Positions 7,748 through 59,936 of a stretch of 64,000 bases of DNA are shown piece by piece. The stretch spans positions 25,872 to 89,871 of the forward strand of contig JANQNE010000011.1 of assembly GCA_028279725.1 (NCBI GenBank). Direction: 5' to 3'. Every line of letters begins with the position of its first letter. Position 1 is the stretch's first letter. The translations under genes and the position numbers were made by a program. Origin of the DNA: Candidatus Nanoarchaeia archaeon (GTDB lineage Archaea > Nanobdellota > Nanobdellia > Woesearchaeales > JANQNE01). Below the pieces are notes generated by a model. That model saw only the letters and a list, made by a program, of their open reading frames with translations. It ran no database searches and was not told the DNA's origin.

Positions 7748-8314
7748 TTAAATCTTTTTGAGGCTTTTTAAAACCTCGGAAGGAGATTTTTCCTCGAATT
7801 CTTTTGAATATTCTTTATATTCATCTGTCTCTTTTAGGAATTGGTTTATGAGATGGAGTGCCTGTGCACTTGTATAGTTAAGACAGTTTAGGATGTGTTT
7901 CATGCAGTTCTTTTCTGTGAATTTGCAGTATTTATCTTCTGGCTCTATGAAGATCTTCAGTTCTCCGTCAATCCTTCTGAAACCAATAGGAAAGATCTTG
8001 CATATCAGTGGTCTGACTGGATAGACAATGCATTTTTTGTCTTCTAAGAAGATGCATTCTTTGTTTTCTTTGCTTTTTAGCTGGAGGACTTTTCCATTGT
8101 CACAGTATTCAAAATAAGAATGGTCGCGGTCTTCCATAACTTCTTTCTGCTCTTCTGGATCCTGGCATATCGGGCCATAGAAACAGAATTCTTCTATCTT
8201 TTTTCCAGTATGCTTTGATATCCTGTCTGCATCTCTTAGTGTAAGAAATGTCCCGTAATCTCCAATACAGCAATGTTCTTTGCATGTCTCACAAGGATGC
8301 TTATTCTGGCTCAA
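7748..8314 (-). CDS. YkgJ/UPF0153-type cysteine-cluster (Fe-S or Zn) protein
   Basis: CETCKEHCC (CxxCxxxCC) plus CIFLEDKKCIVYPVRPLICKIFP, the signature of the CxxCxxCC family. Overlaps the upstream gene by 14 nt. Confidence 0.7.
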   Translation of the reverse strand: MSQNKHPCETCKEHCCIGDYGTFLTLRDADRISKHTGKKIEEFCFYGPICQDPEEQKEVMEDRDHSYFEYCDNGKVLQLKSKENKECIFLEDKKCIVYPVRPLICKIFPIGFRRIDGELKIFIEPEDKYCKFTEKNCMKHILNCLNYTSAQALHLINQFLKETDEYKEYSKEFEEKSPSEVLKSLKKI

Positions 8315-10107: not shown

Positions 10108-10119
10108 ACAAAAACACCC

Positions 10120-11034: not shown

Positions 11035-11070
11035 GAAGAAGTTGTTATATTTAAATTATTAGATTCTCAA

Positions 11071-11163
11071 TGTATAACACGCTACGTTCTATTCTGGAAT
11101 GGATCTGTTTCAGATTCTAGTATTTTTATAACTCTGTCCGAGAACTTCGCTTGGTGTTATGCA
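11071..11163. ncRNA. conserved ~95-nt hairpin element, copy A (candidate structured RNA)
   Basis: Homologous to 48762-48857 and 59004-59098. 10-bp closing helix TGTATAACAC:GTGTTATGCA, inner helix GTTCT:AGAAC, conserved blocks GCTACGT, TTTCAGATTCTAGT and GAGAACTTCGCTTG. Confidence 0.6.
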
Positions 11164-11171
11164 CTTTAGGA

Positions 11172-12215: not shown

Positions 12216-12428
12216 TTAGCACTGCACCCCTGTAGAAAACAACAACACACCATCTTTTTTTTGTTTTAGGTAAAAAAACATTCGGTTTATCACCAGTTTT
12301 TTATTTTTTTTATTTGTTAATGCAATTATATACTTTTTTATTTATAAATGTTATGTTTTTTGTTATTTTTTTAGAAATTTTTCTATAAAAAAGTTTTTTT
12401 AGTCTTATTCTTTTGTTTTTTATTTTGT

Positions 12429-12441
12429 TTTTTATCGTCGA
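12429..12441. promoter_or_regulatory. TTTTTATCGTCGA motif, copy 1
   Basis: One of two identical 13-mers; they are the only G/C islands in the T-rich tract. Confidence 0.3.
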
Positions 12442-12566
12442 GAAAATAACTTTTTTATGTTTTTGCTTTATTTTTTTACTTAATCTTGTTTTTTTGTTAG
12501 TTTTTGTAAAAAATTGCAAAAAAAGAAATTTTTAGTTTACTTTTTTTGGTAAAAATTTTTGTTTTA

Positions 12567-12581
12567 TTTTTATCGTCGATA
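12567..12581. promoter_or_regulatory. TTTTTATCGTCGA motif, copy 2 (perfect palindrome TATCG-T-CGATA)
   Basis: Identical 13-mer, 138 bp from copy 1. TATCGTCGATA (12571-12581) has 5-bp inverted arms. Confidence 0.3.
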
Positions 12582-12866
12582 AAAAGTTTAGGAATTTTTT
12601 AGAAAAAATTTATTTTTTTAATTTTTGTTTAATTTTTTAGATTTTGTGATTATTTTTTCATCTTTTATTTTCTTTTTATTTTTTTCAAAGAATAGTTTGA
12701 TTTTACTTATTGGATGTTGTTTTTTTGTTTGATTTCTGATGATTAGAAAACATTGGGTTTTCTAGCGTTTATTTGCTAAACTTTCAGAAAAAATTATACA
12801 TTATCAGAAAAGTTTATAAAGAGATTTAGGATATATTTCGCTATAAAACCAAAAAGGGGTATTACT

Positions 12867-13211
12867 ATGGCTGCAAAACAAAAAATAATAGGGCTTACTG
12901 AAAAAGTACTGGTCTATGGCCAGAATAAAAAGAAAAATGTTGTCGCTAGGATAGATACTGGAGCGACAAAGTCTTCTATCGATGTAAAATTAGCTGCTGA
13001 GCTGCAGTTAGGTCCTATATACAGGACTAAATTAGTCAAGTCTACCCATGGTAATACATTAAGGCCTGTTGTTGAGATGAACATAAGACTTTCTGGGGTG
13101 GAATTAAGGTCAGATTTTACGATAGCTGACAGAACTGATATGAAATATCAGATATTGGTCGGCCAGAATATATTGAAAGAGGGAAATTTTTTGGTTAATC
13201 CTAAAAAATGA
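12867..13211 (+). CDS. retropepsin-like aspartic protease domain protein (RimK-associated, DUF785/Zn_protease-like)
   Basis: ARIDTGATKSSID (D-T-G-A active-site signature). 114 aa. Overlaps the rimK-like start by 4 nt. Confidence 0.6.
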   Translation: MAAKQKIIGLTEKVLVYGQNKKKNVVARIDTGATKSSIDVKLAAELQLGPIYRTKLVKSTHGNTLRPVVEMNIRLSGVELRSDFTIADRTDMKYQILVGQNILKEGNFLVNPKK

Positions 13212-14311
13212 AAGCTGCATTAATCAGTCTAGGAAGCAAGAGCTCTCAATTTACAGCTGAAGCTATGAAGAATTACTTTGATGAAGTTGATGATCTTGAT
13301 ATAAAGAATATAGAAGTTAATTTTGGTGTTAAGGAGCTTGAACTATTATATAATGGAGAGCCTTTGAAGGATTATGACTGTGTCTATGCAAAAGGATCTT
13401 TCAGATATTCACCTTTGCTTGCGTCAATAACATCTGTATTGGCTAAGAAAGATATATATCTGCCGATAAGCGCAGATTCTTTTACTATAAGCCATGATAA
13501 GCTGCTTACACAGATAGAGCTTCAGAAGAACAAGATACCTATGCCTAAAACATATCTTTCTTCTACACCTGAAGCTGCAAGGGAGCTGTTAGAGAAGGTC
13601 AATTATCCTATAATCATGAAGTTTCCGCAGGGAACACAAGGGAAAGGGGTGATGGTCGCTGATTCTTTTGCTTCAGCATCTTCAATGCTTGATGCTTTGT
13701 CAGCTTTGAGACAGCCTTTTTTGATACAGGAATATATAGAGACAGGCGGAATCGATATAAGAGCGATAGTTGTGGGAAAGAAAGTTGTTGCAGCGATGAA
13801 AAGAAAGGCAGAAGGGGAAGAGAAGAGAGCAAATATACATGCAGGCGGTAAAGCAGAGCCTTGCCAGCTGGATGCTCACACTAAAAAGATCGCTATAGAT
13901 ACTGCAAAGGCAGTTGGTGCAGAGATATGCGGTGTTGATATATTAGAAAGTGCTAAGGGTCCTGTTGTCATTGAGGTGAATATATCTCCTGGGCTGCAGG
14001 GAATAATGGCTGCAACTAAGGTTAATGTTGCTGACAAGATAGCAAAATATCTTTATGAAGTTTCCAAGAAGAGATCTGAAGGGGATAAAAAAGAGTCAGC
14101 ATCAAAGATACTGAGCGATCTTGGTGTTGAAGAGGCAACAAAGACATCAAAAGATATAATGACGACCCTTGATTTCAGAGGAAAGAGGGTGTTGCTGCCT
14201 GAAGTTGTAACCAATCTTACTAAGTTTGATGATACGCAGGATGTTGTGATAAGTGCTGACAAAGGAAAGCTTGAGATAAAGAAGCTTATCATCGGCGCTA
14301 AGAAGAAATAA
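13208..14311 (+). CDS. rimK: RimK-family alpha-L-glutamate ligase (ATP-grasp) with a C-terminal extension of roughly 80 aa
   Basis: YPIIMKFPQGTQGKGVMV, FLIQEYIETGGIDIRAIVVG, RANIHAGG and CGVDILES..GPVVIEVNISPG follow the RimK/LysX pattern. Confidence 0.75.
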   Translation: MKAALISLGSKSSQFTAEAMKNYFDEVDDLDIKNIEVNFGVKELELLYNGEPLKDYDCVYAKGSFRYSPLLASITSVLAKKDIYLPISADSFTISHDKLLTQIELQKNKIPMPKTYLSSTPEAARELLEKVNYPIIMKFPQGTQGKGVMVADSFASASSMLDALSALRQPFLIQEYIETGGIDIRAIVVGKKVVAAMKRKAEGEEKRANIHAGGKAEPCQLDAHTKKIAIDTAKAVGAEICGVDILESAKGPVVIEVNISPGLQGIMAATKVNVADKIAKYLYEVSKKRSEGDKKESASKILSDLGVEEATKTSKDIMTTLDFRGKRVLLPEVVTNLTKFDDTQDVVISADKGKLEIKKLIIGAKKK

Positions 14312-14342
14312 CTTTTTAAATAGAGAGTTCTTGTTTTGTCCT

Positions 14343-16424
14343 ATGTGTGGGATTATAGGGATATTTAACCATAAGGATGCTAAGAAGCTAGCTAAGAAGG
14401 GGCTGTCTAAGATATTATACAGGGGAAAGGACAGTAATGGCCTCTTTAGTTCTGAGAATTGCTGTATCGGACATTGCCTGCATTCTGTAGTTAATTTTGT
14501 TGAACAGCCTTTCAAAGGAAAAGGTGTGCTGATCGTAAATTGCGAGCTGTATAATTGGGAAGAGCTTAACGATAAATATAAGTTTAAGGCAAGGAATGAT
14601 TCTGAATTACTTTTTATGTTGTTGGAGAAGAAAGGAGTTTCAAAGATCAAAGAGATATTAGATGAGCTGGATGGTGTTTATTCTTTCTGCTATTGGATTG
14701 ATGATAAAGTTTATGTTGCGAGAGATATAATCGGTGTAAAGCCATTATGGTTCTCTAAGTATGAGCATCTTGGTTTTGCTTCTGAGAAAAAGGCATTGAA
14801 AGAGATAGGAATGTTTGATGCTGAGGAACTAAATCCCAGGAAGATATTAGTTTATGATGTGAAGAAGAATAAGGTTGAATTTATCGAGAGGGATTTTTTA
14901 AAGATAACACCTGAATTGAAGTGTAAATATGAAAAGATAAAGAAAGAGCTGACTGGGCTTGTTGTTAATTCTATCTCTAAAAGGATACCTGATCAGAAGT
15001 TTGGGATATTGTTTTCCGGAGGGATTGACTCTGGTCTGATCGCACATGCATGTAAAGAATTAGGTGTTGATTTTACATGCTATACTGCTGCTTTGAAAGA
15101 AAAAGGGATGGGAGAAGCAGAAGATATGGTCTATGCTAAGAAAGTTGCTGATAAATTAGGATTCAGGCTAAAGACAAAGACAATTTCTCTTAAAGAAACT
15201 GAAAAGTATCTGAAAAAAGTAGTTCCTTTGATAGAAGATTCCAATGTTGTTAAAGTTGGAGTGGGATTGACTTTCTATGTTGCATGTGAGATGGCTAAGA
15301 AAGATGGGATCAAAGTTATATTTTCCGGACTTGGATCTGAGGAGCTGTTTGCCGGCTATGAAAGGCATAGGAAAAGTGATCTGATAAACAAAGAATGCCT
15401 TTCTGGAGTCATTAAGATATATGAAAGGGATCTTTATAGGGATGATGTTATTGCGATGGCAAACAATCTTGAGCTTAGGCTTCCTTTTCTGGATAAGAAG
15501 CTTACTAGTTATGCACTGAAGATTCCTGCTAAATACAAGATAAAAGATGGGTTGACTAAAGTTGTTCTCCGTGATGTTGCTGTTGGTCTTGGTTATGATA
15601 AAGAATTTGCATCTAGAAGGAAGAAAGCTGCGCAGTATGGAAGCAAGTTTGACAGAGCGATAGCTAAACTTGCTAAGAGAAAAGGATTTAACCTTAAATC
15701 AGAATATTTGAGGACCTTTTATCCGGAAGTTAATCTTAAGCTAGGTGTGTTGTTCAGTTCTGGGAAAGACAGCTGCTATGCGATGCATGTTATGAAAAGA
15801 CAGAATTATGAGATAAGCTGCCTGATAACATTAAAGAGCAAAAATAAAGATTCTTATATGTTTCATACGCCTGCTATCGAGCTTGCTGAAGTGCAGGCGA
15901 AGGCGATGGAATTACCTATAATAGAACAGGAGACTGCAGGTGTTAAGGAAAAAGAGCTTGCTGATCTGAAGAAGGCATTAGCTGCTGCAAAGAAAGAGCA
16001 TAAGATAGAAGGTGTTGTGACCGGAGCATTATTTTCTAAATATCAGCGTGAAAGGATAGAGAAGGTTGCTGATAGTCTTGGGTTAAAGATATTTTCTCCT
16101 TTGTGGCATATGGATCAGGAGACTGAGCTTAAAAGTTTGGTGAGAGAAGGATTTGATGTTATTATCAGCTCTATAGCTGGTTATGGCATGGAAACAAAAG
16201 ATATAGGAAAGAGGATTGATGATAAGATGATCTCGAAATTGAGAAGGTTAAAAGATAAGATCGGGTTTAATGTAGCTGGAGAAGGCGGAGAGTTTGAGAG
16301 CTTTGTCCTTGATGGGCCTATGTTTAAGAAGAGATTGGAGATTGTTGATAGCCAGAGAGCTATAGAGAATGAATGTACTGGCAGGATGCTGATCAAGAAG
16401 ATTAAATTAGTCGACAAGAAATAG
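14343..16424 (+). CDS. fusion protein: glutamine-hydrolysing asparagine synthase-like (N) + diphthine-ammonia ligase Dph6/MJ0570-like PP-loop domain (C)
   Basis: Start set at MCGIIG (Ntn Cys2), with TATA ctttttaaata about 25 nt upstream. AsnB PP-loop ILFSGGIDSG. C-terminal LGVLFSSGKDSCYAM and VAGEGGEFESFVLDGPMF are Dph6 signatures. Confidence 0.75.
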   Translation: MCGIIGIFNHKDAKKLAKKGLSKILYRGKDSNGLFSSENCCIGHCLHSVVNFVEQPFKGKGVLIVNCELYNWEELNDKYKFKARNDSELLFMLLEKKGVSKIKEILDELDGVYSFCYWIDDKVYVARDIIGVKPLWFSKYEHLGFASEKKALKEIGMFDAEELNPRKILVYDVKKNKVEFIERDFLKITPELKCKYEKIKKELTGLVVNSISKRIPDQKFGILFSGGIDSGLIAHACKELGVDFTCYTAALKEKGMGEAEDMVYAKKVADKLGFRLKTKTISLKETEKYLKKVVPLIEDSNVVKVGVGLTFYVACEMAKKDGIKVIFSGLGSEELFAGYERHRKSDLINKECLSGVIKIYERDLYRDDVIAMANNLELRLPFLDKKLTSYALKIPAKYKIKDGLTKVVLRDVAVGLGYDKEFASRRKKAAQYGSKFDRAIAKLAKRKGFNLKSEYLRTFYPEVNLKLGVLFSSGKDSCYAMHVMKRQNYEISCLITLKSKNKDSYMFHTPAIELAEVQAKAMELPIIEQETAGVKEKELADLKKALAAAKKEHKIEGVVTGALFSKYQRERIEKVADSLGLKIFSPLWHMDQETELKSLVREGFDVIISSIAGYGMETKDIGKRIDDKMISKLRRLKDKIGFNVAGEGGEFESFVLDGPMFKKRLEIVDSQRAIENECTGRMLIKKIKLVDKK

Positions 16425-23282: not shown

Positions 23283-24782
23283 TTAACCTCTGTCAGCTTT
23301 CTCCAGCTTTTCTATCTTTTCTTTGTTTTTCTTTTTTATCGCTTTCTGGATCTTCTCATTTGAGAGTCCTAAGATCTGTGCTGCATGTCTTGCTGCATTA
23401 GCAGGTCTTAAGATCAATGAGTTAGAGCTTCCTGGTGGATTCTCTAAGCAAGAAAAGCAATCATCTGCATCAGGAGGACAGCTGATCACTGGGTGAACGC
23501 TGTGGAATGATACAACTCCTGAAAGAGCATCTGTTCCTCCTGCAACAGAGATAAATACAACTGGTTCTTCAGACTGGTTGTATTTGTTTATGATCTCTTC
23601 ACATCTTCTTGGTTGTTTGTGTGCTGAGCAGATTCTTATGACTGATGCCAGTCCGTATTTGTTCAACTCTTCCTGGATCTTTTTCAGATGAGGCATGTCA
23701 CTGTCTGATCCTGCTATGATAACTACTAAGCCACCTTTGATGTATCCTTCTTTTCTTAGCTTTTGGATCATATCTGTGCTTACATCTGACTGAGGGAAAT
23801 TGAACTTATTTCCTGTCAGGCTTTCATATAAACTGATATATCTGTAAGCAACTTCTATTACATCTTTGTCTTCAAGTTCTGGCGGCTTTTCTGTTGATCC
23901 GTAAGCACCATATCCTTTTTCAACAAGAACATCTCTAACGAACTGTTTTGACAGCTCTTTTATCTTTAGCTGTGGTTTTTTCTTAAGAAGTTCTGTTACA
24001 TCTTTGTATCTTCCTGTATCCATCTCTTTCTTTATTCCTGTGTATTTGTTGTATTCTTCTATTGTACAGTATCTTGATGAATCTGGTGTGTTTGCTTCGT
24101 CAATCAGGTTGATCTTTCCTTTTTCGTCGATACCAAACTCATACTTTGTGTCAATGAAGATAAATCCTTTCTGTTCTGCCAGTTTTGATGCACGCTTAAA
24201 TAGTCTTATTGAGATATCTCTGAGCTGTGTTGCCAGTTTTTTTCCAAGCTTATCTGCCATGTATTCAAAGCTTACATTAACATCATGATCTCCATCTTCT
24301 GCTTTTGTAGCTGGAGTAAATAATGGTTCTCTAAGCTTTTGGTATCTTAGCAATGAATCTGAAAGCTTTATTCCGCAGAACTCTCTTTTTCCATCTTCGT
24401 AGTCTGCAGCCATGCTTCCCCAAACATATCCTCTTACAACGAATTCGAATGCAATCTTATTCATCTTTTTCTGGACAATAACATTTCCATGAGGGCTTCT
24501 TATGACAGCGTTTGGAACAATATCTGTTGTGTTGTCAAATGCCCATTGTGCGAAGAGGTTTAATGTTAATCCTTTGAAAGGGATCTGCCTGCTAAGTACA
24601 TGGTCAAAGCAAGATATCCTATCTGATGCCACCATCACTATAGGTTTTCCAACTTTTGGTGATGTAAAATGTACTTCTCTTACTTTTCCTGATTTATGTG
24701 TTCCAAGTTCTGGGATGTATCCTGAGAACAGGGTATTGTCTAAGTTTTCTTTGATTATTTTTTTGTATTTTTGTTCTTCCAT
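23283..24782 (-). CDS. purC-purE: bifunctional SAICAR synthetase (N) + class II-like AIR carboxylase PurE (C), PAICS-like order
   Basis: N: GKVREVH...VASDRISCFD...IPFKG. C: IIAGSDSDMPH, CSAHKQP, VAGGTDALSGVV...HPVISCPP, AAQILGLSN (animal PAICS-like strings). Confidence 0.85.
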   Translation of the reverse strand: MEEQKYKKIIKENLDNTLFSGYIPELGTHKSGKVREVHFTSPKVGKPIVMVASDRISCFDHVLSRQIPFKGLTLNLFAQWAFDNTTDIVPNAVIRSPHGNVIVQKKMNKIAFEFVVRGYVWGSMAADYEDGKREFCGIKLSDSLLRYQKLREPLFTPATKAEDGDHDVNVSFEYMADKLGKKLATQLRDISIRLFKRASKLAEQKGFIFIDTKYEFGIDEKGKINLIDEANTPDSSRYCTIEEYNKYTGIKKEMDTGRYKDVTELLKKKPQLKIKELSKQFVRDVLVEKGYGAYGSTEKPPELEDKDVIEVAYRYISLYESLTGNKFNFPQSDVSTDMIQKLRKEGYIKGGLVVIIAGSDSDMPHLKKIQEELNKYGLASVIRICSAHKQPRRCEEIINKYNQSEEPVVFISVAGGTDALSGVVSFHSVHPVISCPPDADDCFSCLENPPGSSNSLILRPANAARHAAQILGLSNEKIQKAIKKKNKEKIEKLEKADRG

Positions 24783-28169: not shown

Positions 28170-28738
28170 TATTTACACCTTATCACTCTTTTTTCGGTAA
28201 TTATCATATCCATCGGGATGTCATAATCTTCTGTTGGTATATTTTTTGTTATCTGTTCTTCAAATGCAAGCCCTATTTTTAGGGAGTTTCTGTCTTTCAG
28301 GAATCTGTCGTAAAAACCTTTTCCGAATCCTATCCTTGCTCCGCTTTGGTCAAAAGCGATGCCTGGGACGAGGACGATGTCCAGGTTTTCTTTGTATTCC
28401 TCTTTTTTGATTGGTTCGAGTACTCCGAAGTTCCCTTCTTTTAGGTCATTGAAGTCAGATAATTTTGATATCTTTATGTTGTTTTCTTCGACAAATGGGA
28501 TGATTACTGTCTTTTGCTGCAGTTGTTCTTTGATTAATTCTATTGTGTTTACCTCACTTTTTAGTGAAAGGTAAGACATCACTATGTTTGCTTTTTTGAA
28601 CTCATCCAGATCTTTTAGATGTTGGATGATTGTCTTGCTTTTTTCTGAGATCTGTTCTTCCGGTATGTTATCTCTTATGGACCTTATGGTGTTTCTGATC
28701 TCTTGTTTGTTTATTCTGTTCATAGTGCGATTCTTCAC
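28169..28738 (-). CDS. 5-formyltetrahydrofolate cyclo-ligase
   Basis: LVPGIAFDQSGARIGFGKGFYDRFL is the MTHFS signature. Confidence 0.8.
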   Translation of the reverse strand: MKNRTMNRINKQEIRNTIRSIRDNIPEEQISEKSKTIIQHLKDLDEFKKANIVMSYLSLKSEVNTIELIKEQLQQKTVIIPFVEENNIKISKLSDFNDLKEGNFGVLEPIKKEEYKENLDIVLVPGIAFDQSGARIGFGKGFYDRFLKDRNSLKIGLAFEEQITKNIPTEDYDIPMDMIITEKRVIRCK

Positions 28739-31404
28739 TTTTGCCTATCAAGCTCTTTTTTTGCAATATCTTTTCTAAAAAACATGCCGTCGAAGTTTAT
28801 GTCATTTATTTTTGTGTATGCTGTATCGACGGCATCTTTAAGGGTTGATCCTAATGTGATTACATTTAATACTCTTCCTCCATTTGTGAGGATCTTTCCG
28901 TTATCTTTCTTTGTTCCAGCGTGAATCACCTGTGCTCCACTTATGTTATCTAAACCTTTTATCTCTTTTCCCTTTTCATATGAACCAGGATAACCTCCTG
29001 ATGCTAGTACTATGCTTACGCAGTGTTTTTCAGACCAGTCTAGTTTCATAGCTCCTAGTTTCTTGTCTATTACTGCGTTCATTACGTCAAGTATATCATT
29101 GTTTAATCTTGGAAGGATAACCTGTGTTTCCGGATCTCCAAATCTGCAGTTGAATTCTAAGATCTTTAGGCCGTCTTTTGTTTTCATAAGTCCGACGTAG
29201 AGGACTCCTTTGTATTCTATGCCTTCTGCTTTTGTTCCAGCTATGAATGGCTTAATTATCTTTTCTTCCATCTCTTTTTCAAGTCCGTCTAATATTGGTG
29301 CTGGTGAGTAAGCTCCCATCCCTCCTGTATTAGGGCCTTTGTCTCCTTCATAGATTGGTTTGTGATCCTGTGAATATACCATTGGCTTGAATGTTTCTGA
29401 GTCTACGAAGACTAAGTAGGACCCTTCTTCACCTACAAGACATTCTTCTACAACTATTGATGAAGATGCATCTCCGAATTTGTTTGCTTTTAGGCATTCT
29501 TCTGCAAACTTTACTGCTTCTTCTACTGTGTTTGCGACAAGAACTCCTTTTCCAGCAGCTAGTCCGTCTGCTTTTACGACAATTGGTGCTCCCTGCTTTT
29601 CGATGTATGCTTTTGCTTTTTCAAAATCAGTGAATTCATCAAATTCAACTGTTGGAAGATTATATTTTTTCATGAATCTTCTTGCAAATGCTTTTGATCC
29701 TTCAAACTGTGATGCTTTTTTGTTAGGGCCGAAGACTCTTATCCCTGCTTTTTCAAGTTCGTCAGCTGCTCCGTTAACTAGCGGAGCTTCTGGACCTATG
29801 ATTGCAAGATCTATCTTCTTTTCTTTTGCAAACTTGACTAAAGCTTCATTATCATTTTGGTCGATATCATGACAGCAAGCTACCTGGCCAATACCTGGAT
29901 TTCCCGGGACTGCGTATAGTTTGTTTAATCTGTCAGATTCTGTGACTTTTAATGCAATAGCATGCTCTCTTCCGCCTGAACCAACTATCATTACGTTAAG
30001 TTTGGTGTCTAATGTTGTCTGCTCTTCTGTTCTCTGGCAACCAAGGCATTGCTGCTGTGATTCTGATACTGGTTCTGGGTATTCTCCTGTTAAACATGCC
30101 ATACATACATCCCTCCTTGTAGCATTCTTGATATTATCAACTGTTGCATATACTAAATTATCTGCTTCAAGATATTCTCTTATCTGTTCTATTGATTTAT
30201 CTGAAGCTATAAGCTCTTTTTTTGTCGCCATGTCTATCCCATAGAAGCATGGGAATTTTATAGGAGGACAAGCAGAAACAAATGTAACTTTTCTAACTCC
30301 TCCATCTTTTAATGTTCTTACTATCCTTTTTGATGTTGTTCCCCTTACAATGCTGTCATCAACTACAGCAACACTCTTGTTTTCAAGTATACTTATTACA
30401 GGCCTTAGTTTTCTTCTTACTGAGTCATGCCTTGTCTTTTGTGATGACATTATGAATGTTCTTTGTATATATTTATCTTTGATCAGACCTTCCCTATATT
30501 TTACAGCAAGATCTTCACTTAATTTTATAGCAGCTGTCCTTCCTGAATCTGGAACTGGGACTACAACATCGATGTCTTTTTGGTCCATCTGCTCGCTCAT
30601 CAGTTTTCCAAGAGCTAATCTTGTCTTGTATACTGATCTGTTCTCTATCATGCTGTTCGGGCTTGCAAAATATATCCATTCAAACATACAATGAGCTTTT
30701 TTCTCCTGTTTTAGGATCTTGCTTTCTATAACCAAGTCTTTTGAGATAAAAACAGCTTCTCCTGGCTCTATATCTCTGACATAATCATGATCAATAACCT
30801 GAAATGCTACAGTTTCTGAAGCAAATATGTATGAATCTCCTCTCTTTCCGAGAACTAAAGGCCTTATGCCTCTTGGATCTCTTATCGCGAATATACCTTT
30901 GTCTGCTATCATTCCAACAATTGAGTAAGCTCCTCTTACCTTATCCATGAAGTGCTTTGCAGCTGCAAAGAAATCTCCATGCTGTTCGTAATGCTCTGCG
31001 AATATTCTTAGAAGAACTTCACCGTCAACAGAGGTTTCAAGATGTTTTCCTTTTTTTTGGAATTCTTCTTTTAGGTCGAAGTAGTTTATTGTGTTTCCGT
31101 TCTGAGCCATAGCAACTTTTGGGTTGATCTTTGTTGTAAGAGGTTGTGCGTCGCACAACATTCCTTTTCCCTGTGTTGCATATCTTGTGTGGCCGATGCC
31201 CATCTTCCCTTGTAATAGGTTTGCGTCTCTTGCCTTGAATACTCTGTGAACAGCATCCATCTCTTTTTTTGTGAAGAATTCGTCTTTTACGTTTGTTACT
31301 ATGCCGCATGCATCCTGGCCTCTATGCTGCAATGACATCAAGCTAGTTACTGCATCCTCAAAAACTTCATCATCTTTTGAAACAATACCAATAATTCCGC
31401 ACAT
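28735..31404 (-). CDS. purF-purD: fusion protein: amidophosphoribosyltransferase PurF (N) + phosphoribosylamine-glycine ligase PurD (C), 889 aa
   Basis: N: MCGIIGIV, HTRYATQG, VDDSIVRGTT, CMACLTGEYP. C: VMIVGSGGREHAIA, VVKADGLAAGKGV, EFNCRFGDPE, TNGGRVL. Confidence 0.9.
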   Translation of the reverse strand: MCGIIGIVSKDDEVFEDAVTSLMSLQHRGQDACGIVTNVKDEFFTKKEMDAVHRVFKARDANLLQGKMGIGHTRYATQGKGMLCDAQPLTTKINPKVAMAQNGNTINYFDLKEEFQKKGKHLETSVDGEVLLRIFAEHYEQHGDFFAAAKHFMDKVRGAYSIVGMIADKGIFAIRDPRGIRPLVLGKRGDSYIFASETVAFQVIDHDYVRDIEPGEAVFISKDLVIESKILKQEKKAHCMFEWIYFASPNSMIENRSVYKTRLALGKLMSEQMDQKDIDVVVPVPDSGRTAAIKLSEDLAVKYREGLIKDKYIQRTFIMSSQKTRHDSVRRKLRPVISILENKSVAVVDDSIVRGTTSKRIVRTLKDGGVRKVTFVSACPPIKFPCFYGIDMATKKELIASDKSIEQIREYLEADNLVYATVDNIKNATRRDVCMACLTGEYPEPVSESQQQCLGCQRTEEQTTLDTKLNVMIVGSGGREHAIALKVTESDRLNKLYAVPGNPGIGQVACCHDIDQNDNEALVKFAKEKKIDLAIIGPEAPLVNGAADELEKAGIRVFGPNKKASQFEGSKAFARRFMKKYNLPTVEFDEFTDFEKAKAYIEKQGAPIVVKADGLAAGKGVLVANTVEEAVKFAEECLKANKFGDASSSIVVEECLVGEEGSYLVFVDSETFKPMVYSQDHKPIYEGDKGPNTGGMGAYSPAPILDGLEKEMEEKIIKPFIAGTKAEGIEYKGVLYVGLMKTKDGLKILEFNCRFGDPETQVILPRLNNDILDVMNAVIDKKLGAMKLDWSEKHCVSIVLASGGYPGSYEKGKEIKGLDNISGAQVIHAGTKKDNGKILTNGGRVLNVITLGSTLKDAVDTAYTKINDINFDGMFFRKDIAKKELDRQK

Positions 31405-41909: not shown

Positions 41910-44900
41910 ATGAAGGATTTAAGCAGATATCTAGATAAATTTAGAGGCGATTCTGTTAGGTTAGATAGACCTAGCCTTGATGATGATATCCGGACTATAG
42001 TATTCAATTATGAGCCTTTTGTTCTTGATTGGAAAAATTTTAGGAAACTGGAAAGAGATACTGAAAGAGAAGCAGAAGAAGTCTATAAGCAAAGAGCTCT
42101 GAATGGAGACACCTATACTGATATTGAAAAACAGTTTAAAGATGACCCAAAAGGAAGATATGATGCTACGAAAGATAGAGACTGGGTTGAAGGAAAGGTA
42201 AAAGCGTTCAGGCCGGAGATAAAAAGAGCTCTTGAGAGCAAATCAATAATAGGTATTAGACCTGACCAGGAAGATCTTGAGTCTATCTGTATGGATAGGA
42301 ACATCACTTTAGTTGGAAAAGAAGTTGTAGGTATTAATTCTGAATTTATGGTGGGAAATGACATCATACTTTTGGAGACCGAAGTATATGAAAAGGTCTG
42401 TGAGAGGCTAAAAGAAAGCGATGATAAATCAAAAGAGAATGCAGTAGCTACAATCAAGGAAGTTATTGAAGAAGAACTTACTAAAGAGAAACCAAAACTG
42501 CTGATAGTTGATAATGAAATGGGAGAAAGATTGAGGATGACTGAAATAGCTCTAAAATGCGGGTTTAGCACTCGAATAGCTGAAAATCCAGAACAGGCAT
42601 TTCAGATGCTTGAAAAAGAAAAAGACATTGGTACGATAATAACAGGTGATATATTTCCTGGAACTAATGGGCTTGATTTCATAATGGAGCTTAGAAAGAG
42701 AGGAGGAGAACAGCATGCAATACTTGTATCAGATGAGCAGTTCATAGAAAAGGAATATGAAGGAAAAAACCATAAAGAACTGCTTCAGGCAAATGTGAGA
42801 GTTATTGAGAAAGGAGGAAATACAGATCCAGAGATAAGAAGTGAATTTCTTAATGCTAAAGGTAAGATGGATCTTATGGCTGAGAAGACAGATGTACGTA
42901 TAGAGGAGAAAGATTCAAAGATACCAACCTTTGCAGATTTTGAGAATAAGATAAGAGATTACAACAGCAATTCTGGAAAGCTTATAATGCTTGATTCGAA
43001 TGATATCAATGAAGTTATTACATCATTCAAGAGCAAGTTTAAAACACCCGAAGATTATATCACACTTTCAACTTTGAATAATGAAGATATGAAATACATA
43101 TTGACTGTTCCACGTATACTTAAGATTGAAGAGAATGGTGTGGAAGATAAAGCTATCGACCATATGATGGATGTTTTGGATCCTGAGGAAAGAAATCTAG
43201 GAAATGTTCTTGGAAAATTCTATGAAAAGATAAAAGAAGGATGGACTGGAGAAGATGTACAGGAGCTGCTTCGTTCAATCCTACGAAAAGAAGATGTAGG
43301 AGAATCTATCAAGAGTATTTACAGAAATAGAAAGGGTATGGATGATGAAGTAGTCATTGAAAGGAATATGAGAGAAGGTTCTGATTTTAGAACTTCTATA
43401 TTTTTCAGCTATAAGAATGCAGGAAGAGTGGCTGAAAGATACAATCATTATAGTGAGGATAAAAGGATAAAGTATAATCTTGGAATTACAACAGAAAGAG
43501 TAAGCTGGGTTGCAAAGAACAATGCACTGCTTGCCAGGTATCTTGAGATGTTTGGTGCTGCAAAAGGGAAAGTTGAACATGACAGTCTTGTCAATATAAT
43601 AAATCAGGACAGAAAGGATGATGTTGTGAGCATCAAGGAATCAAAGATTACAGTAGATTCAAAATATCATGTTTACGAAGTTACATCAACTTATGGAGAA
43701 AATGAAAAAAGACACAGCATAGTAAAATTCATAACTAATCCAGATTCATTTGAAAGGGAAGTCTATAACTATAATTATTTCAAGAGATTTGACGGAATAA
43801 ATGATGCGAATAGTCTGGTAACTACAACAGTGGAGGATGAAGAAGGAAACAAGAATTATGTTGTTGTACTTAATTTTAAGGAAGGAGTGGAGCCTAGACA
43901 GAATCTTATGACTACTTTTGAAAATATAAGAGAGAGTATCAAGACAGGAGGAGATGATGTTAAGAAAGAGCTTAATGATAAGGCAAATAAAGTAGGGATA
44001 CAGGCTATGTCTGATGTAGGAAGAGTACATGGTGTTGCTCCTGAACTAAAAGGAGATACATACACTTCATTCTATGGTGATTTTAAAAAATACCTTCATT
44101 TCAGGATAGGAGAGTTCCAAGATAATCTTACTGACCTTGTAAAACAGCTTGCTACTGAATTTAAAGATCATATACAAAAGAACTCATCAAGAGTTAAATC
44201 AAACTCTTATTCACTTGTTGAATATCTAGCAAGCATGGATACAACTTTCTATAAGGATACTGTAACAAAGAACATGACTCCTATGGGGGAGGAAGGAGGG
44301 AAGAACTCAGGCAGGTTTGCATCAGTTGATTATGGAGAAGTCAGAAAACTTCCACTGACTTTTGATGTTGCAAATGCAGTACATACTATGTACATACCTG
44401 ATATCAGGGTTGCTGAGGAAGATGGAACAATAGATCAGATGCTGATATCCTATCTTAGTGGATATTGTGAAGGAAGAACATCGTACAATAATGAAGTTAT
44501 GAAGAAGAAAAATGTAAAAAAATATCTTGTAGATAATCTTGAAAGGATGAGAAAAGGGACAGGAAATGAAAGTGTAAGGGAGAATCTATCTGATCTTCTT
44601 AAGATAATAAAGAAGGAAGAGCCAAAACATAAGAGCAGGAAAAAGAAGATGGCATTTTATAAGGATATCATGTCTGGATTTGCTGAGTCAAGCGGATCAG
44701 ATGAGTTAAAAAGAGTTGTAGCGAATGAGATCAAATATTTTGATGAAATAGAAGATAAACCTGACCCATATTTTGGGAAGCTTAAGATCAGGACAAGCAC
44801 TGCGAAAGGAAGAAGAAACAAAAGATATGAGATCATAAGCGATAAATTAAAAGGACCAAGAGATAGGTGGTCAACTAAATTGAATGATGCGTTCGAAAGA

Positions 44901-45212
44901 TTCAAAGCAGATTTCTATGTAAGTATGGCATACAGAGGACAGGTTATAGCAAATACTGTTCCAGTCTATATATTATCAGATCATAATATCAACAAGCAGA
45001 GGAGGGATTATTTTTCATCTGTTATGGGAAATACTACTCAAGCATTAGAGATACTTAGTGAGAAATATATCGGAAAAGAAAAAGGAATGTACTTAAGGAG
45101 AGAGCTAGATGGCGATAAGCTTAATGAAGTTAAGAATGCACTTTCAGATATCAGGAATATATTTGAAAAGATAGATCCGGGGGCTGTTAAGAATGCCGAA
45201 TACAAAGCTTGA
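41910..45212 (+). CDS. 1100-aa multidomain protein: unknown N-terminus, receiver (REC) domain, possible protein-kinase-like/APH-like domain, unknown C-terminus
   Basis: REC: KLLIVDNEMGER...IGTIITGDIFPGTNGLDFIMELRK...HAILVSD. Kinase-like: HSIVKFITNPDSFEREVYNY, VVVLNFKEG, FYKDTVTKN (HxDxxxxN-like), ASVDYGE (DFG-like). Confidence 0.6.
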   Translation: MKDLSRYLDKFRGDSVRLDRPSLDDDIRTIVFNYEPFVLDWKNFRKLERDTEREAEEVYKQRALNGDTYTDIEKQFKDDPKGRYDATKDRDWVEGKVKAFRPEIKRALESKSIIGIRPDQEDLESICMDRNITLVGKEVVGINSEFMVGNDIILLETEVYEKVCERLKESDDKSKENAVATIKEVIEEELTKEKPKLLIVDNEMGERLRMTEIALKCGFSTRIAENPEQAFQMLEKEKDIGTIITGDIFPGTNGLDFIMELRKRGGEQHAILVSDEQFIEKEYEGKNHKELLQANVRVIEKGGNTDPEIRSEFLNAKGKMDLMAEKTDVRIEEKDSKIPTFADFENKIRDYNSNSGKLIMLDSNDINEVITSFKSKFKTPEDYITLSTLNNEDMKYILTVPRILKIEENGVEDKAIDHMMDVLDPEERNLGNVLGKFYEKIKEGWTGEDVQELLRSILRKEDVGESIKSIYRNRKGMDDEVVIERNMREGSDFRTSIFFSYKNAGRVAERYNHYSEDKRIKYNLGITTERVSWVAKNNALLARYLEMFGAAKGKVEHDSLVNIINQDRKDDVVSIKESKITVDSKYHVYEVTSTYGENEKRHSIVKFITNPDSFEREVYNYNYFKRFDGINDANSLVTTTVEDEEGNKNYVVVLNFKEGVEPRQNLMTTFENIRESIKTGGDDVKKELNDKANKVGIQAMSDVGRVHGVAPELKGDTYTSFYGDFKKYLHFRIGEFQDNLTDLVKQLATEFKDHIQKNSSRVKSNSYSLVEYLASMDTTFYKDTVTKNMTPMGEEGGKNSGRFASVDYGEVRKLPLTFDVANAVHTMYIPDIRVAEEDGTIDQMLISYLSGYCEGRTSYNNEVMKKKNVKKYLVDNLERMRKGTGNESVRENLSDLLKIIKKEEPKHKSRKKKMAFYKDIMSGFAESSGSDELKRVVANEIKYFDEIEDKPDPYFGKLKIRTSTAKGRRNKRYEIISDKLKGPRDRWSTKLNDAFERFKADFYVSMAYRGQVIANTVPVYILSDHNINKQRRDYFSSVMGNTTQALEILSEKYIGKEKGMYLRRELDGDKLNEVKNALSDIRNIFEKIDPGAVKNAEYKA

Positions 45213-46617
45213 TAGTCCCAGTATAGATCTTCACCTGCACAGCGGTTTTTCTGTCGATAATGAAAATATCTCTCCTGAGGAATGGGCTGAATTTATCTAT
45301 AAAGTAAAGGAGAGCAGGCTTCCTGGACTGAAAGGGATAGCCTTGACTGACCATAACAACATGGTAGGAGTTGAGCCTAATCTTGATGCACTTAGAAAGC
45401 TAGAGAGAAGGAAAGGAGTTGAGCCTTTAGAGTTTATCCCCGGTGTTGAATGCGCTCTTGAGCATGAGAATGTTTCTGCACATATAATTGCTTATTTTGT
45501 ACCTGGCGAAAATGAGAAGATAGAAGATGCACTGCACAGGGCAACGCAGATAAATCCGCTTCTTGAGATAATCAATACTGAATTTACGAGAAGAAAATAC
45601 GGAGTTCTTGCTCTGGAGACAGCTAATGCACATATGAGAAATAAGCTAGGAGATGCTTTTGAACACCCTATCACTATAAAAGAGATGGATGCTGTGATGA
45701 GAGAAGAGCTTCCTGTTTATGAGCTTGACAACTGGATATTCAAGCCAACCTATGAAGATGGAAGTATGACAAAGAACAGGATAACTGAGCTTAACCACAG
45801 GCAGCTTGAGAAGCTTCTTTGCGGGAATCATGAATCAGGAGATATAAAAAGGAATTGGGTAGATCCAAAAGAGGCTGAGATATTGGTAAAAAGAGGAGGA
45901 GTACTCTATCCTGAAAATTTTCCAGGCTACAGTGTACTCAAAGGGATAGAGCAGATACATGAAGCAGGAGCTTTTGCAAGCTTTGCGCATCCTCAGCTTA
46001 CAATAAGGAGCCTTTGTGAAAAAAAATTAGGAAATAAGATAAAAGATGAAGGAGTTAAAGGTGGTTTGAAGCTTGATAGGGTAAAAGATATACAGATTAA
46101 GTATTCAGCTCTGGATGAGACTCTTGTAGAGTTCCAGGATTTTTTAGAGAAAGAGATGATACCAAGAGGGCTGAATGCTATCGAGCTGACAAACCATTAT
46201 TCATATCTTATGGCTGAGTTTGCATATATGACTATAAGTCTTTTGATGTTTGTTGATAATTATAACAGAAGAAATCCTAACAACAGGCTGTATGTAACTG
46301 GAGGATCTGATTTTCATAAGCCGGTAGGAAACAGAAACATAGGAACAGTAAACACAATGTGTGAGAAAGGTGTCCAGCAGCTTATCGAGATATACAGCAA
46401 GATGGACAGCGGCAGCAGGCCAAGATTTGATGAAGGGACAATAAAACAGCTTCATGAGATAATCATGACAGGAACAAGAGATATCTATACAACAGATAAC
46501 AGTGCAAATGAGTTCACCAGAGTCATACCTTACTATCAGCTAACAAGGATGAAAGAGGCAGAAAAAGATCCAAAATCAGGACTTTATCTGCTTCCAGGTT
46601 CAGTCAAGAGTGAGTGA
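45193..46617 (+). CDS. PHP-domain metal-dependent phosphoesterase with large insertions
   Basis: IDLHLHSGFS, ALTDHNNM, ECALEH...AHIIAYF, SFAHPQ, ELTNHY, TGGSDFHK. Overlaps the upstream gene by 20 nt. Confidence 0.7.
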   Translation: MPNTKLDSPSIDLHLHSGFSVDNENISPEEWAEFIYKVKESRLPGLKGIALTDHNNMVGVEPNLDALRKLERRKGVEPLEFIPGVECALEHENVSAHIIAYFVPGENEKIEDALHRATQINPLLEIINTEFTRRKYGVLALETANAHMRNKLGDAFEHPITIKEMDAVMREELPVYELDNWIFKPTYEDGSMTKNRITELNHRQLEKLLCGNHESGDIKRNWVDPKEAEILVKRGGVLYPENFPGYSVLKGIEQIHEAGAFASFAHPQLTIRSLCEKKLGNKIKDEGVKGGLKLDRVKDIQIKYSALDETLVEFQDFLEKEMIPRGLNAIELTNHYSYLMAEFAYMTISLLMFVDNYNRRNPNNRLYVTGGSDFHKPVGNRNIGTVNTMCEKGVQQLIEIYSKMDSGSRPRFDEGTIKQLHEIIMTGTRDIYTTDNSANEFTRVIPYYQLTRMKEAEKDPKSGLYLLPGSVKSE

Positions 46618-47676: not shown

Positions 47677-47826
47677 ATGGAGATACCTGATGACTGGAAT
47701 GAAGAAAATGAAGATACCATCTATTCAGAGGATGGAAGAGAAAGTTTAGTAGATAGTGAAGCTATGACACCAGAAGAAGCTGCATTTATGCAGGGTTATA
47801 GTGAAGCTGAAGAAGAGCTTGAATAA
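47677..47826 (+). CDS. small acidic protein, paralog 1 (49 aa)
   Basis: TATA tttataaaa and SD AGGAGGG upstream. MEIPDDWNEENEDTIYSEDGRESLVDSEAMTPEEAAFMQGYSEAEEELE. Below the ORF-track cutoff. Confidence 0.6.
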   Translation: MEIPDDWNEENEDTIYSEDGRESLVDSEAMTPEEAAFMQGYSEAEEELE

Positions 47827-47942
47827 GTGTTTTTTTATATAATTCTTATACGTTTTATAAAATTTAATGGGTAATTATATATATTTGCTTCTATTACTAC
47901 CTCTTATCCAAGGTTAAAATACTATAAATGGGGTGGGGTTGA

Positions 47943-48092
47943 ATGAAAATAATAAAATCAAATTGGATAGATGAGTTAGAGGGTGAGAACTTAAGCGTTT
48001 ATTCTGAAGACGGCAGAGATATGCTTGTAGACGATGATGAGATGACATTAGAGGAAGCTGGCTTTATGCAAGGCTGGGATGAAGCAGGTTAA
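47943..48092 (+). CDS. small acidic protein, paralog 2 (49 aa)
   Basis: SD GGGGTGGGG upstream. MKIIKSNWIDELEGENLSVYSEDGRDMLVDDDEMTLEEAGFMQGWDEAG. Confidence 0.6.
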   Translation: MKIIKSNWIDELEGENLSVYSEDGRDMLVDDDEMTLEEAGFMQGWDEAG

Positions 48093-48105
48093 GGGGGTGA
48101 GTGAG

Positions 48106-48225
48106 ATGAGAATAATAGATGATTGGGATGAAGAGCTTAAGGGAGCATTTTTCAAGGAGAAAGGGCTTCATGTAGATGATGAAGATGTGTGGTTTGAGGA
48201 TCTTTTTCCAGAAAAAGCTAGCTGA
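48106..48225 (+). CDS. small acidic protein, truncated/diverged paralog 3 (39 aa)
   Basis: SD GGGGGTGAGTGA upstream. MRIIDDWDEELKGAFFKEKGLHVDDEDVWFEDLFPEKAS shares the IxDDWxEE N-terminus with paralog 1. Confidence 0.4.
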   Translation: MRIIDDWDEELKGAFFKEKGLHVDDEDVWFEDLFPEKAS

Positions 48226-48270
48226 CAGCGCTTAACAAATTTTTTATAGTTTAAAATTTACTAGTTCTAG

Positions 48271-48510
48271 ATGGATAAAGAGGAAAATATGGATATTTCT
48301 GAGCATAAGAGGGTAAAGAGGTATTTTGAGGAAGAGCTGAAGAGAAGGGATAAGATAATCGATAGATTAAAGGAAGAAAAACGTGTTATTCTAGATTCTT
48401 CGTTCAAAAAAGAAGAGGAAAGGGCTAAACTTAGAGAACAGCTGGATAAACTGCATAAAAGCCATCAAAACCTCTTGAATAGGGTAAAGAAGGATAAAGA
48501 AAGGAGATAG
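48271..48510 (+). CDS. small basic coiled-coil protein
   Basis: 79 aa, K/R/E-rich heptad-like sequence (EEELKRRDKIIDRLKEEKR...). Sits inside the acidic-protein island. Confidence 0.45.
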   Translation: MDKEENMDISEHKRVKRYFEEELKRRDKIIDRLKEEKRVILDSSFKKEEERAKLREQLDKLHKSHQNLLNRVKKDKERR

Positions 48511-48585
48511 AATTCTATTTTGTTTTTGGTAAAAAGAAAGACTTAAAAATAATATAATCTTTATCGGTGCTCAGAGGGTGAAATA

Positions 48586-48759
48586 ATGAGAGATGATTAT
48601 AAGGAAGAGATTGAGGAAGAGAATGTATATAGTGAAGGCGGTAGAGAGAGCAATCTAGATGATGATGAGATATCGGGCAGTGAAGAAGCATTTATGCGTG
48701 GATATGATGATGCTGAAGAGTATGATGACGGAGATTACTCTGAAAGCGAAGAAGAATAA
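48586..48759 (+). CDS. small acidic protein, paralog 4 (57 aa)
   Basis: SD AGAGGGTGA upstream. MRDDYKEEIEEENVYSEGGRESNLDDDEISGSEEAFMRGYDDAEEYDDGDYSESEEE. Confidence 0.6.
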   Translation: MRDDYKEEIEEENVYSEGGRESNLDDDEISGSEEAFMRGYDDAEEYDDGDYSESEEE

Positions 48760-48761
48760 GA

Positions 48762-48857
48762 GTGCATATTGCGCTACGTACTAATTCTGTTTTTTGACTG
48801 ATTTCAGATTCCAGTGTCATAGATATTTACCTGAGTACTTCGCTTGCCAATATGCAC
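48762..48857. ncRNA. conserved ~95-nt hairpin element, copy B (candidate structured RNA)
   Basis: 10-bp closing helix GTGCATATTG:CAATATGCAC, inner helix GTACT:AGTAC, blocks GCTACGT, TTTCAGATTCCAGT and GAGTACTTCGCTTG. Begins 3 nt after a stop codon. Confidence 0.6.
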
Positions 48858-48904
48858 CAGAATAAACAAAAGATTTATTAAATAAATAACTAATTCTTTT
48901 AAAT

Positions 48905-58969: not shown

Positions 58970-59003
58970 TATACTGGTATACGTTTTTGTATATTATGTT
59001 GAT

Positions 59004-59098
59004 GGTATAGCACGCTTTGTCTGCTTCTGAAATGGCTGGAGAAGCAGATTTTAGTCAATACAGAAGCTGTATCTGAAGACTGCGCTTGGTGCTATACT
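59004..59098. ncRNA. conserved ~95-nt hairpin element, copy C (candidate structured RNA)
   Basis: Closing helix GGTATAGCAC:GTGCTATACT, inner helix GTCT:AGAC, internal hairpins TCTGCTTC:GAAGCAGA and TACAG:CTGTA, blocks CAGATTTTAGT and GAAGACTGCGCTTG. Confidence 0.6.
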
Positions 59099-59163
59099 TT
59101 ATATCCGAAATATTTAAATAAAGAATCGAGATTTCTATCGCTACAAATAACAAGAGTGATAAC

Positions 59164-59834: not shown

Positions 59835-59936
59835 GGGCCTATAGTCTAATGGATAGAACAACCGGCTTCGGTAAGTGGGGTCAAAAGCTTCGCTTGTGGG
59901 TACCGGTTAGTGGGGGTTCGAATCCTCCTAGGCCCA
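59835..59936 (+). tRNA. tRNA-Arg (anticodon TCG) with a 30-nt intron at the canonical 37/38 position; no encoded CCA
   Basis: Acceptor GGGCCTA:TAGGCCC (7 bp), anticodon stem ACCGG:CCGGT, loop C-T-TCG-G-[intron 59872-59901]-A, T arm GGGGG-TTCGAAT-CCTCC, discriminator A. The mature length is 72 nt. The D stem has one mismatch. Confidence 0.8.

Follow-up and report, generated by a model that had tools for sequence, protein, structure and literature searches.

A probable MITE-like mobile repeat of Woesearchaeota with covarying arms and a conserved structured core

The window and its three copies

The 64-kb stretch of DNA analyzed here (the window, taken at its full length) comes from a Woesearchaeote, one of the DPANN archaea, as judged by its ArgRS, whose next best matches are proteins of 'Candidatus Woesearchaeota archaeon' at no more than 74% identity. 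The gene content of the window is of the housekeeping kind and includes a cluster for purine biosynthesis. Among these genes lie three copies, A, B and C, of a short imperfect palindrome (Table 1). Copy A is 8 nt from the stop codon (11172-74) of a minus-strand gene, and is placed between two minus-strand genes (LPG_synthase_C-like and D-Ala-D-Ala ligase-like by Pfam) and antisense to both. Copy B begins 2 nt past a stop codon (48757-59), with coding sequence directly upstream and no TATA sequence. Copy C begins 35 nt past a stop codon (58967-69), between a HAD hydrolase gene and the S17e/Alba genes, all of which are on the plus strand. An earlier note on this DNA had described all three copies as intergenic and within about 40 nt of a stop codon, and the distances of 2-35 nt agree with this.

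Table 1. Coordinates of the three copies in the window and of the parts of copy B
Feature	Position	Strand	Remarks
Copy A, core	11071-11163	+	covariance-model match 11064..11170; cmsearch 88.3 bits
Copy B, core hairpin	48762-48857	+	whole model match 48756..48863; cmsearch 82.4 bits, E 6e-22
Copy C, core	59004-59098	+	model match 58997..59105; cmsearch 77.8 bits
Copy B, outer-helix 5' arm GTGCATATTG	48762..48771	+	100% complementary to 48848-48857; covaries across 17 copies
Copy B, outer-helix 3' arm CAATATGCAC	48848..48857	+	pairs with 48762-48771
Copy B, 5' conserved block CGCTACGT	48772..48779	+	
Copy B, central box CAGATTCCAGT	48805..48815	+	mid-point of otherwise unconserved interior of about 55 nt
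Copy B, 3' conserved block GAGTACTTCGCTTGC	48833..48847	+	
Copy B, left direct repeat AGAATAA	48753..48759	.	includes TAA stop of upstream gene
Copy B, right direct repeat AGAATAA	48859..48865	.	

The homology of the three copies, also proposed in the earlier note, is borne out by three common islands of sequence and by a closing helix that is kept by compensatory changes. Over the three copies the islands read CGCT[AT][CT]GT, CAGATT[CT][CT]AGT and GA[GA][ATG]ACT[TG]CGCTTG. The first island is CGCTACGT in copies A (11080-87) and B (48772-79) and CGCTTTGT in copy C (59013-20), while the central island lies at 11111-21, 48805-15 and 59045-55 in A, B and C. The third takes the form GAG[AT]ACTTCGCTTG in copies A (11140-53) and B (48833-46); the shared blocks first described were thus all recovered, the third being present in copy C only as the diverged GAAGACTGCGCTTG (59075-88). 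The 10-bp closing helix exists in every copy with a different sequence, just as had been quoted, and the inner helix shows the substitutions reported for it (GTTCT:AGAAC in A, GTACT:AGTAC in B and GTCT:AGAC in C).

Double changes were found at 6 of 22 pairs when the three copies were analyzed together with RNAalifold. Single blocks are not rare within the window, and it is their combination that is. In copy B, CGCTACGT supplies the closing C, the GC of a 2-bp clamp, the 3-nt loop strand TAC and the GT with which the inner helix starts, and GAGTACTTCGCTTGC supplies the inner-helix AC, the loop strand TTC, the clamp GC and a 3-nt bulge, TTG. All three copies are intact, with cmsearch scores of 78-88 bits against a maximum of 93, and the whole element folds with z-scores of -2.3 to -3.5.

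The earlier note could not match the element to tRNA, C/D, H/ACA, SRP or RNase P architecture, and the database comparisons agree: none of the copies matched an Rfam 15 family, self-cleaving ribozymes and riboswitches included, whether at the gathering score or with the cut-off relaxed to E<=10 and the search space reduced to as little as 221 nt, and ARAGORN reported nothing on the copies. Inspection led to the rejection of several further candidates. There are no boxes and no ACA that would mark a tRNA, a split tRNA, or a C/D or H/ACA sRNA. A kink-turn is excluded by inspection of the alignment, in which two Watson-Crick pairs follow the bulge and then a 3x3 loop rather than tandem G·A pairs. 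The BHB motif fails on two counts, in that the second unpaired stretch is a symmetric internal loop and not a bulge, and that the central helix is only 2 bp long. The hammerhead and other ribozymes were rejected from the sequence. The template and variable repeats of DGRs do not apply, the differences between copies not being A-specific. A small ORF was also dismissed, as the frame is not kept; the central box falls into different frames in copies A and C, and there is no conserved reading frame. Finally, integron attC sites were set aside on the grounds that the ends are variable and have no GTTRRRY, and that the copies lie 10-37 kb apart amid housekeeping genes.

A wider family and its covariation

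A strict version of the three-block pattern gave a single chance match in GTDB genomes, in Granulicella and with no flanking helix, and pattern scans of IMG/VR gave only chance matches that were rejected by the covariance model; BLAST against plasmids and phages found no match. A looser three-block pattern was then scanned over metagenomes, and the 12 nt on each side of every match were scored for pairing. Eight of the 54 matches had 9-12 of the 12 flanking bases paired, and the other 46 had at most 6. The eight paired loci are on low-GC contigs, and their arms show no sequence relationship to the arms in the window. With a covariance model trained on 11 copies and run on the window and the eight loci, the family grew to 17 distinct copies, which represent five or more populations: the three of the window and those of L018, L027, L040, L041, L042, L050, L053 and L055. 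Both L027 copies recur in L068, a longer contig of the same organism.

Across the 17 copies, 91.6% of helix cells are paired, compared with 67.7% in shuffles and 26-47% when the 3' partners are slid, and double changes occur on 14 of 17 pairs. The maintenance of pairing rather than of sequence, which had been proposed from three copies, is thereby confirmed well beyond them by the covariance-model check. The arms differ even between copies of one genome, both in the window (A, B and C) and between the two copies of L068. The part of the structure adjoining the arms behaves differently: the GC:GC clamp is invariant save for one compensated change (GC:GC to GU:AC in L018+), and the GU:AC pairs that start the inner helix are likewise invariant apart from one compensated change at the second pair (U:A to C:G in L027b). 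The helices contain 10 G:U pairs and 10 A·C mismatches. Selection on RNA would be expected to favor G:U strongly, and this equality counts against an RNA gene.

Carriers hold the element at a density of three copies per 64 kb, two per 6 kb and two per 8 kb. Several contigs stop within a few hundred nt of a copy, as assemblies do at repeats. The ArgRS loci of related Woesearchaeota, which amount to about 70 kb once redundancy is removed, contain none.

Anatomy of the unit

The consensus unit is an imperfect palindrome of 93-110 nt. An outer helix of 10-18 bp carries, just inside it, a 3-nt bulge (NNG) on the 3' strand, which is followed by the 2-bp GC:GC clamp, a 3x3 internal loop (UNY opposite UNC) and an inner helix of 3-5 bp that starts with G:C and U:A. 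The size of about 95 nt given in the earlier note holds for the window but is somewhat short for the family, whose unit measures about 100-110 nt and whose outer helix reaches 12-18 bp in other copies. The interior of about 55 nt has a constant length and constant spacer lengths, with a 10-nt box at its center. Its identity between copies is 35-50%, near saturation, as against 72-100% for the blocks and box together and 73-100% for the box. The interior folds no better than shuffles (mean z -0.3 for the sense and -0.7 for the antisense strand), and RNAalifold gave no consensus fold for it. An alternative hairpin around the 3' block, such as CCGAG/CUUGG in copy A, was considered and dropped, since it is not kept across copies.

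Read on the complementary strand, the internal loop is GNA opposite RNA and the bulge is CNN. This would be a loop of the sheared G·A type, which is also stable in DNA, and for that reason the strand first taken as sense may not be the relevant one.

Copies of the family sit 0-35 nt from stop codons in compact intergenic regions, and their orientation relative to the adjoining gene is mixed: B, C and L040b are sense and A and L068a antisense. Neither a consistent promoter nor a common terminator was found among the copies, and the 3' flanks are heterogeneous.

Insertion at new sites

Evidence for mobility comes from L068, whose organism is also a Woesearchaeote and which carries copies at 14357-14466 (L068a, the first site) and at 8358-8466 (L068b, the second site). 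Relatives of this organism have the same gene order, with a ThyA-like protein that is 82-85% identical, and their orthologous intergenic regions are only 52-66 nt long (L071, L072 and L073 at the first site; L071, L072 and L074 at the second). The covariance model, run with filters off, detected no copy in those relatives. For the first site a pairwise alignment with cheap gap extension was used, because MAFFT misaligned a flank that resembles the 5' part of the element. The comparison of L068a with the empty site gives a single clean gap of 100 nt flanked by TTAC/TTAT (...AAATTAC[GGTTTAAC...CTAAACC TTAT]GATAT... versus ...AAATTACGAGAT...), so that the insert matches the hairpin exactly, with the addition of an imperfect repeat of 4-5 nt, TTAC(G)/TTAT(G), by which the neighboring gene retains its stop codon. 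L068b lies between a shared bidirectional TATA box and the start of TYW1, and it is the most decayed copy, scoring 36.7 bits. Insertion of units into new intergenic sites, typically at the very ends of genes, is thereby shown, and the element is not conserved at syntenic loci.

The intergenic region in which L068b resides is itself of a compact design. TYW1 and a gene of 163 aa are divergent, and a single palindromic TATA box, GTTTAAAAAG, is common to the two, at about 23 nt from either start codon; the region measures 52-53 nt in L071 (9139-9193), L072 (9127-9180) and L074 (2897-2951), and in L068 (8340-8520) the element has entered on the TYW1 side of the box, ahead of the start codon.

Doublets, terminal repeats and target duplications

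In four loci (L018, L042, L050 and L055) two elements abut head to head with a spacer of 1-2 nt, and a truncated doublet occupies the start of L040, so that inverted doublets are present in four or five of the eight metagenomic loci. The doublets sit within units of 254-268 bp that have terminal inverted repeats (TIRs) of their own, 12-14 nt long, with the sequences AAGGCRCAGTCARC and AGCTCTGCTGAAGCCC. Perfect 5-bp direct repeats surround the doublet units of L018 (GATTT/GATTT) and L042 (TCAGC/TCAGC); the flanks of the L050 unit, TTTTT/TTTTC, match at 4 of 5 positions, and no target duplication is detectable at the L055 doublet. The flanks of three doublet units from one sample, Ga0105093, are not homologous to each other.

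Among the singles, copy B has the exact 7-nt repeat AGAATAA, 2 nt and 1 nt from the ends of its helix, for which random placements give P of about 0.005 per copy. No target duplication could be detected at A, C, L041, L053 or L068b, and the six singles other than B and L068a have no exact flanking repeat of at least 4 nt. The duplications differ in length (5 bp for the doublet units, 7 nt for copy B and an imperfect 3-5 nt for L068a), and no tetranucleotide is common to all flanks across the copies. Target-site duplications had been named in the earlier note as a sign that would speak for a MITE, and they appear in part, as the 5-bp repeats of L018 and L042 and the 7-nt repeat of copy B, without being uniform.

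Two further repeats were seen next to copies. In L040, an exact second copy of the final 27 nt of L040b (ATTGAAAACTTCGCAAGGCGCTATTGC) stands directly upstream of the 5' arm of that same element (3388-3414 and 3481-3507). The repeat makes an 18-nt perfect palindrome at the junction, and the arrangement resembles a tail-to-head junction or a partial tandem duplication. In L041, read on the minus strand, the 7-nt direct repeat CTAGAAA occurs 16 nt upstream (1042-1048) and 14 nt downstream (905-911) of the single hairpin; it could delimit a larger inserted unit of about 130 nt, or could be a chance occurrence in AT-rich DNA.

Comparison with known repeats

A real and previously uncatalogued family of repeats with a conserved structured core is present in these archaea, and its closest resemblance is to MITEs. 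In a census of prokaryotic MITEs, a Woesearchaea genome had 105 MITEs per Mb, among the highest densities in archaea (PMC11602168). Like MITEs, the element is small, a single measuring about 100 nt and a doublet unit about 260 bp; it is a multicopy repeat of intergenic DNA that codes for no protein and has no transposase of its own. It has terminal inverted repeats of at least 10 bp (arms of 10-18 nt and doublet TIRs of 12-14 nt), flanking direct repeats at several copies, and a presence/absence polymorphism between related genomes. Unlike MITEs, its arms differ between copies in one genome and covary, and the constant part is a subterminal asymmetric junction together with a central box, kept across divergent genomes. 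The target duplications are not uniform, and there is no known cognate insertion sequence. Most of the defining features of a MITE are therefore present, the exceptions being a uniform target duplication and a known autonomous partner.

The ERIC/IRU and Correia (NEMIS) elements of bacteria are imperfect palindromes of about 100-150 bp that are intergenic, often co-transcribed and found in both orientations. Their copy number is patchy between related genomes, an RNA hairpin forms on transcription, and Correia elements have a central site for a host factor; these are the points of likeness to the archaeal element. It has no sequence similarity to them, however, and they keep the sequence of their terminal repeats, where in the archaeal element the arms vary around a junction that is kept. 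Correia elements also have a TA duplication. REPs and REPINs, the bacterial repeats mobilized by RAYT, are similar in being extragenic palindromes with compensated stems that often form inverted doublets and occur in either orientation; recognition of a folded single strand has been proposed for them as well. REPs, however, are 20-40 nt long with a conserved 5' GTAG, whereas the present hairpins measure about 100 nt and have a large loop. The doublets described here differ from REPINs in abutting head to head inside a unit bounded by TIRs and target-site duplications (TSDs), and the hosts are archaeal, with no RAYT gene seen in the DNA examined. In the compensation of its stems and in its inverted doublets the element works like the REP/REPIN and ERIC-type palindromic repeats, but it belongs to neither group.

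A further likeness is to the attC sites of integrons, which also lie just past stop codons and have variable terminal structures, and whose folded single strand is recognized not by its sequence but by extrahelical bases and an unpaired spacer. The element differs in that its ends have no R''/R' core sites (RYYYAAC/GTTRRRY), in that there are no cassette arrays of one orientation, and in its housekeeping neighbors, inverted doublets and duplications.

Nature of the element

We consider it probable, at roughly 0.6, that the element is a non-coding, non-autonomous mobile repeat of Woesearchaeota, a MITE-like foldback of about 100 nt. The conserved junction blocks and central box would be cis-acting sites for a mobilizing machinery that is encoded elsewhere, and the arms would need only to match each other. 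Their match may be kept because only foldback-competent copies propagate, with the folded single strand as substrate; alternatively, templated correction between the arms of the quasi-palindrome could keep them complementary without selection. Either process would let the arms covary freely while the junction stays fixed, and templated correction without selection would also leave no wobble bias. An RNA hairpin that results from co-transcription with a neighboring gene would be a by-product or a secondary effect. Since the arms differ within a genome while the junction and box are kept across genomes, the arms are probably not read by sequence, and the survival of the bulge and loop in the face of a tendency toward perfecting of the palindrome argues that these are under selection.

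The enzymology suggested by the flanks is of two kinds. For the doublet units, the 5-bp duplications speak for an enzyme of the staggered-cut (DDE) type, and for the singles, the insertion next to TTAC, taken together with arms that matter only for their shape, speaks for one of the HUH type. A sequence-specific transposase that reads the terminal inverted repeats would not tolerate arms that differ within one genome, and the covariation of the arms, which is not expected in a classical DDE-type MITE, speaks against that form of the explanation. Pfam searches of essentially all ORFs of the window and of the called genes of the fetched loci, about 200 kb in all, revealed no transposase domain. 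Furthermore, the junction and box are kept across genomes with ArgRS proteins no more than 74% identical, a degree of conservation that a purely selfish and decaying repeat would not usually show. There is a modest chance that the conserved core marks something mechanistically new. We regard it as doubtful that the core is either the recognition module of a so far undescribed, structure-guided mobilization in DPANN archaea or a host-recruited RNA or DNA module that hitch-hikes on a MITE. The structure-guided version could be an archaeal counterpart of the folded-strand recognition of REPIN-RAYT and attC, in which shape and a few bases are read and the sequence of the arms is free; the parts read could be the bulge, the GC clamp, the 3x3 loop and the central box, at a fixed spacing of about three helical turns.

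The more specific proposal that an HUH (Y1) transposase acts in trans on a folded single-stranded DNA hairpin and reads its shape, as in REPIN/RAYT or IS200/IS605 systems, seems unlikely. It would account for the covariation of the arms around an invariant asymmetric junction and for the lack of strand bias in the wobble pairs, and the complementary-strand GNA/RNA loop would suit it, as a sheared G·A-type loop is stable in DNA too. The inverted doublets of four or five of the eight metagenomic loci would then be the replicative unit, like REPINs in bacteria. The target of IS608 is TTAC, and L068a, which lies directly 3' of TTAC and ends in TTAT, fits insertion adjacent to a tetranucleotide without a true duplication, a reading that requires no substitution. 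Against this stand the perfect 5-bp duplications of unrelated sequence and the TIRs around doublets, which are a signature of staggered-cut integration, as well as the variety of the flanking tetranucleotides, the length of the hairpins (about 100 nt versus 20-40 nt for REPs) and the result that no RAYT/Y1 transposase gene was found by Pfam in the window or the fetched loci.

A role for the host also has to be weighed. The element might have spread as a repeat and now be kept as a cis-acting RNA hairpin, in the capacity of a UTR stabilizer, a terminator or insulator, or a protein-binding site, much as has been proposed for the bacterial ERIC, REP and Correia elements. The proximity to stop codons (0-35 nt), the intactness of the window copies, their whole-element folding scores, the conservation of junction and box across divergent genomes, and the fact that a doublet offers one sense hairpin whichever strand is transcribed are all in keeping with such a role. 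However, antisense singles (A and L068a) are about as many as sense singles (B, C and L040b), so that an RNA motif read by its sequence could be active in only some of them; G:U pairs do not outnumber A·C mismatches; related genomes manage without the element at the same loci; and L068b, between a promoter and a start codon, is the most decayed of the copies. On balance we think this role improbable, to much the same degree as the HUH transposase. Still less can be said for the interpretation originally offered, that the copies are independently transcribed, trans-acting small RNAs of a new class. Strong covariation without an Rfam match would be expected of such RNAs, copy A and L027a each have a TATA-like sequence about 25 nt upstream, and short T-runs follow several copies. 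Copy B, however, starts 2 nt past a stop codon with coding sequence and no TATA upstream, and the 1-2 nt between the partners of a doublet leave no room for upstream promoters. The interior is unstructured, there is neither a common terminator nor a strand bias in the wobble pairs, and the empty orthologous sites of relatives and the TIR and TSD architecture of doublet units belong to mobile DNA. We judge small RNAs of this kind to be very unlikely.

The interpretation in the earlier note is thus only partly supported, because the element behaves as mobile DNA. Its claim of an RNA gene runs into the mixed orientation, the missing promoter and terminator, the equality of G:U and A·C, and the empty sites in relatives, and its claim that the element is not a MITE runs into the filled and empty sites, the TIRs and 5-bp duplications of doublets and the 7-nt repeat at copy B. 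Its alternative wording, hairpin DNA, is still viable.

Mobile elements of DPANN archaea are poorly described. The genomes of these organisms are small and compact, yet the census ranks a Woesearchaeal one with the archaea richest in MITEs. The present family supplies an actual example that can be aligned, a covariance model able to detect copies in different populations, and two dated insertions with empty orthologous sites. It also carries a warning for RNA-discovery pipelines, in that helix covariation alone cannot tell a structured RNA gene from a foldback repeat; the signs that separate them here are orientation, wobble-pair asymmetry, empty sites and flanking repeats. If it is true that the junction is read as a folded strand, structure-guided transposition would be extended to archaea.

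Other features of the window

Several features of the window are of interest apart from the repeat. The purine biosynthesis cluster (14331-37227) is a near-complete de novo pathway, which is unusual for DPANN archaea, and contains PurA, GuaA, GuaB, PurM-like, PurN, FolD, PurH, PurQ, PurL and PurB domains. It also includes fused genes for PurF-PurD (28735-31404, 889 aa), PurC-PurE (23283-24782) and asparagine synthase-diphthamide synthase (14331-16424). The region around copy A (8301-14311) is a cluster of the peptide-ligase type, with genes for a GNAT/FemAB-like protein, two LPG_synthase_C-like paralogues, a D-Ala-D-Ala ligase-like ATP-grasp protein, a retropepsin-like protease and a RimK-like ligase. 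Further along (41910-46617), an ORF of 1100 aa, to which Pfam gives only a weak receiver-domain match, is followed by an overlapping gene for a PHP-domain protein of 474 aa.

Just upstream of copy B, on the plus strand (47677-48759), are three tandem, small and very acidic paralogous ORFs of 49, 49 and 57 aa with the common motif YSE[DG]GR[ED]..(L)[VD]D.[DE].. EEA.FM.G[YW]; a fourth acidic ORF is located at 48079-48225. The sole Rfam match in the window (51.6 bits) is a plus-strand tRNA-Arg with the anticodon UCG (59835-59936), which was missed by ARAGORN and has an intron of about 30 nt after position 37. The intron holds GCTTCGCTTG, a 9/10 match to the 3' block ACTTCGCTTG of the element, and this is probably due to chance, as about four such matches are expected per window by our estimate.
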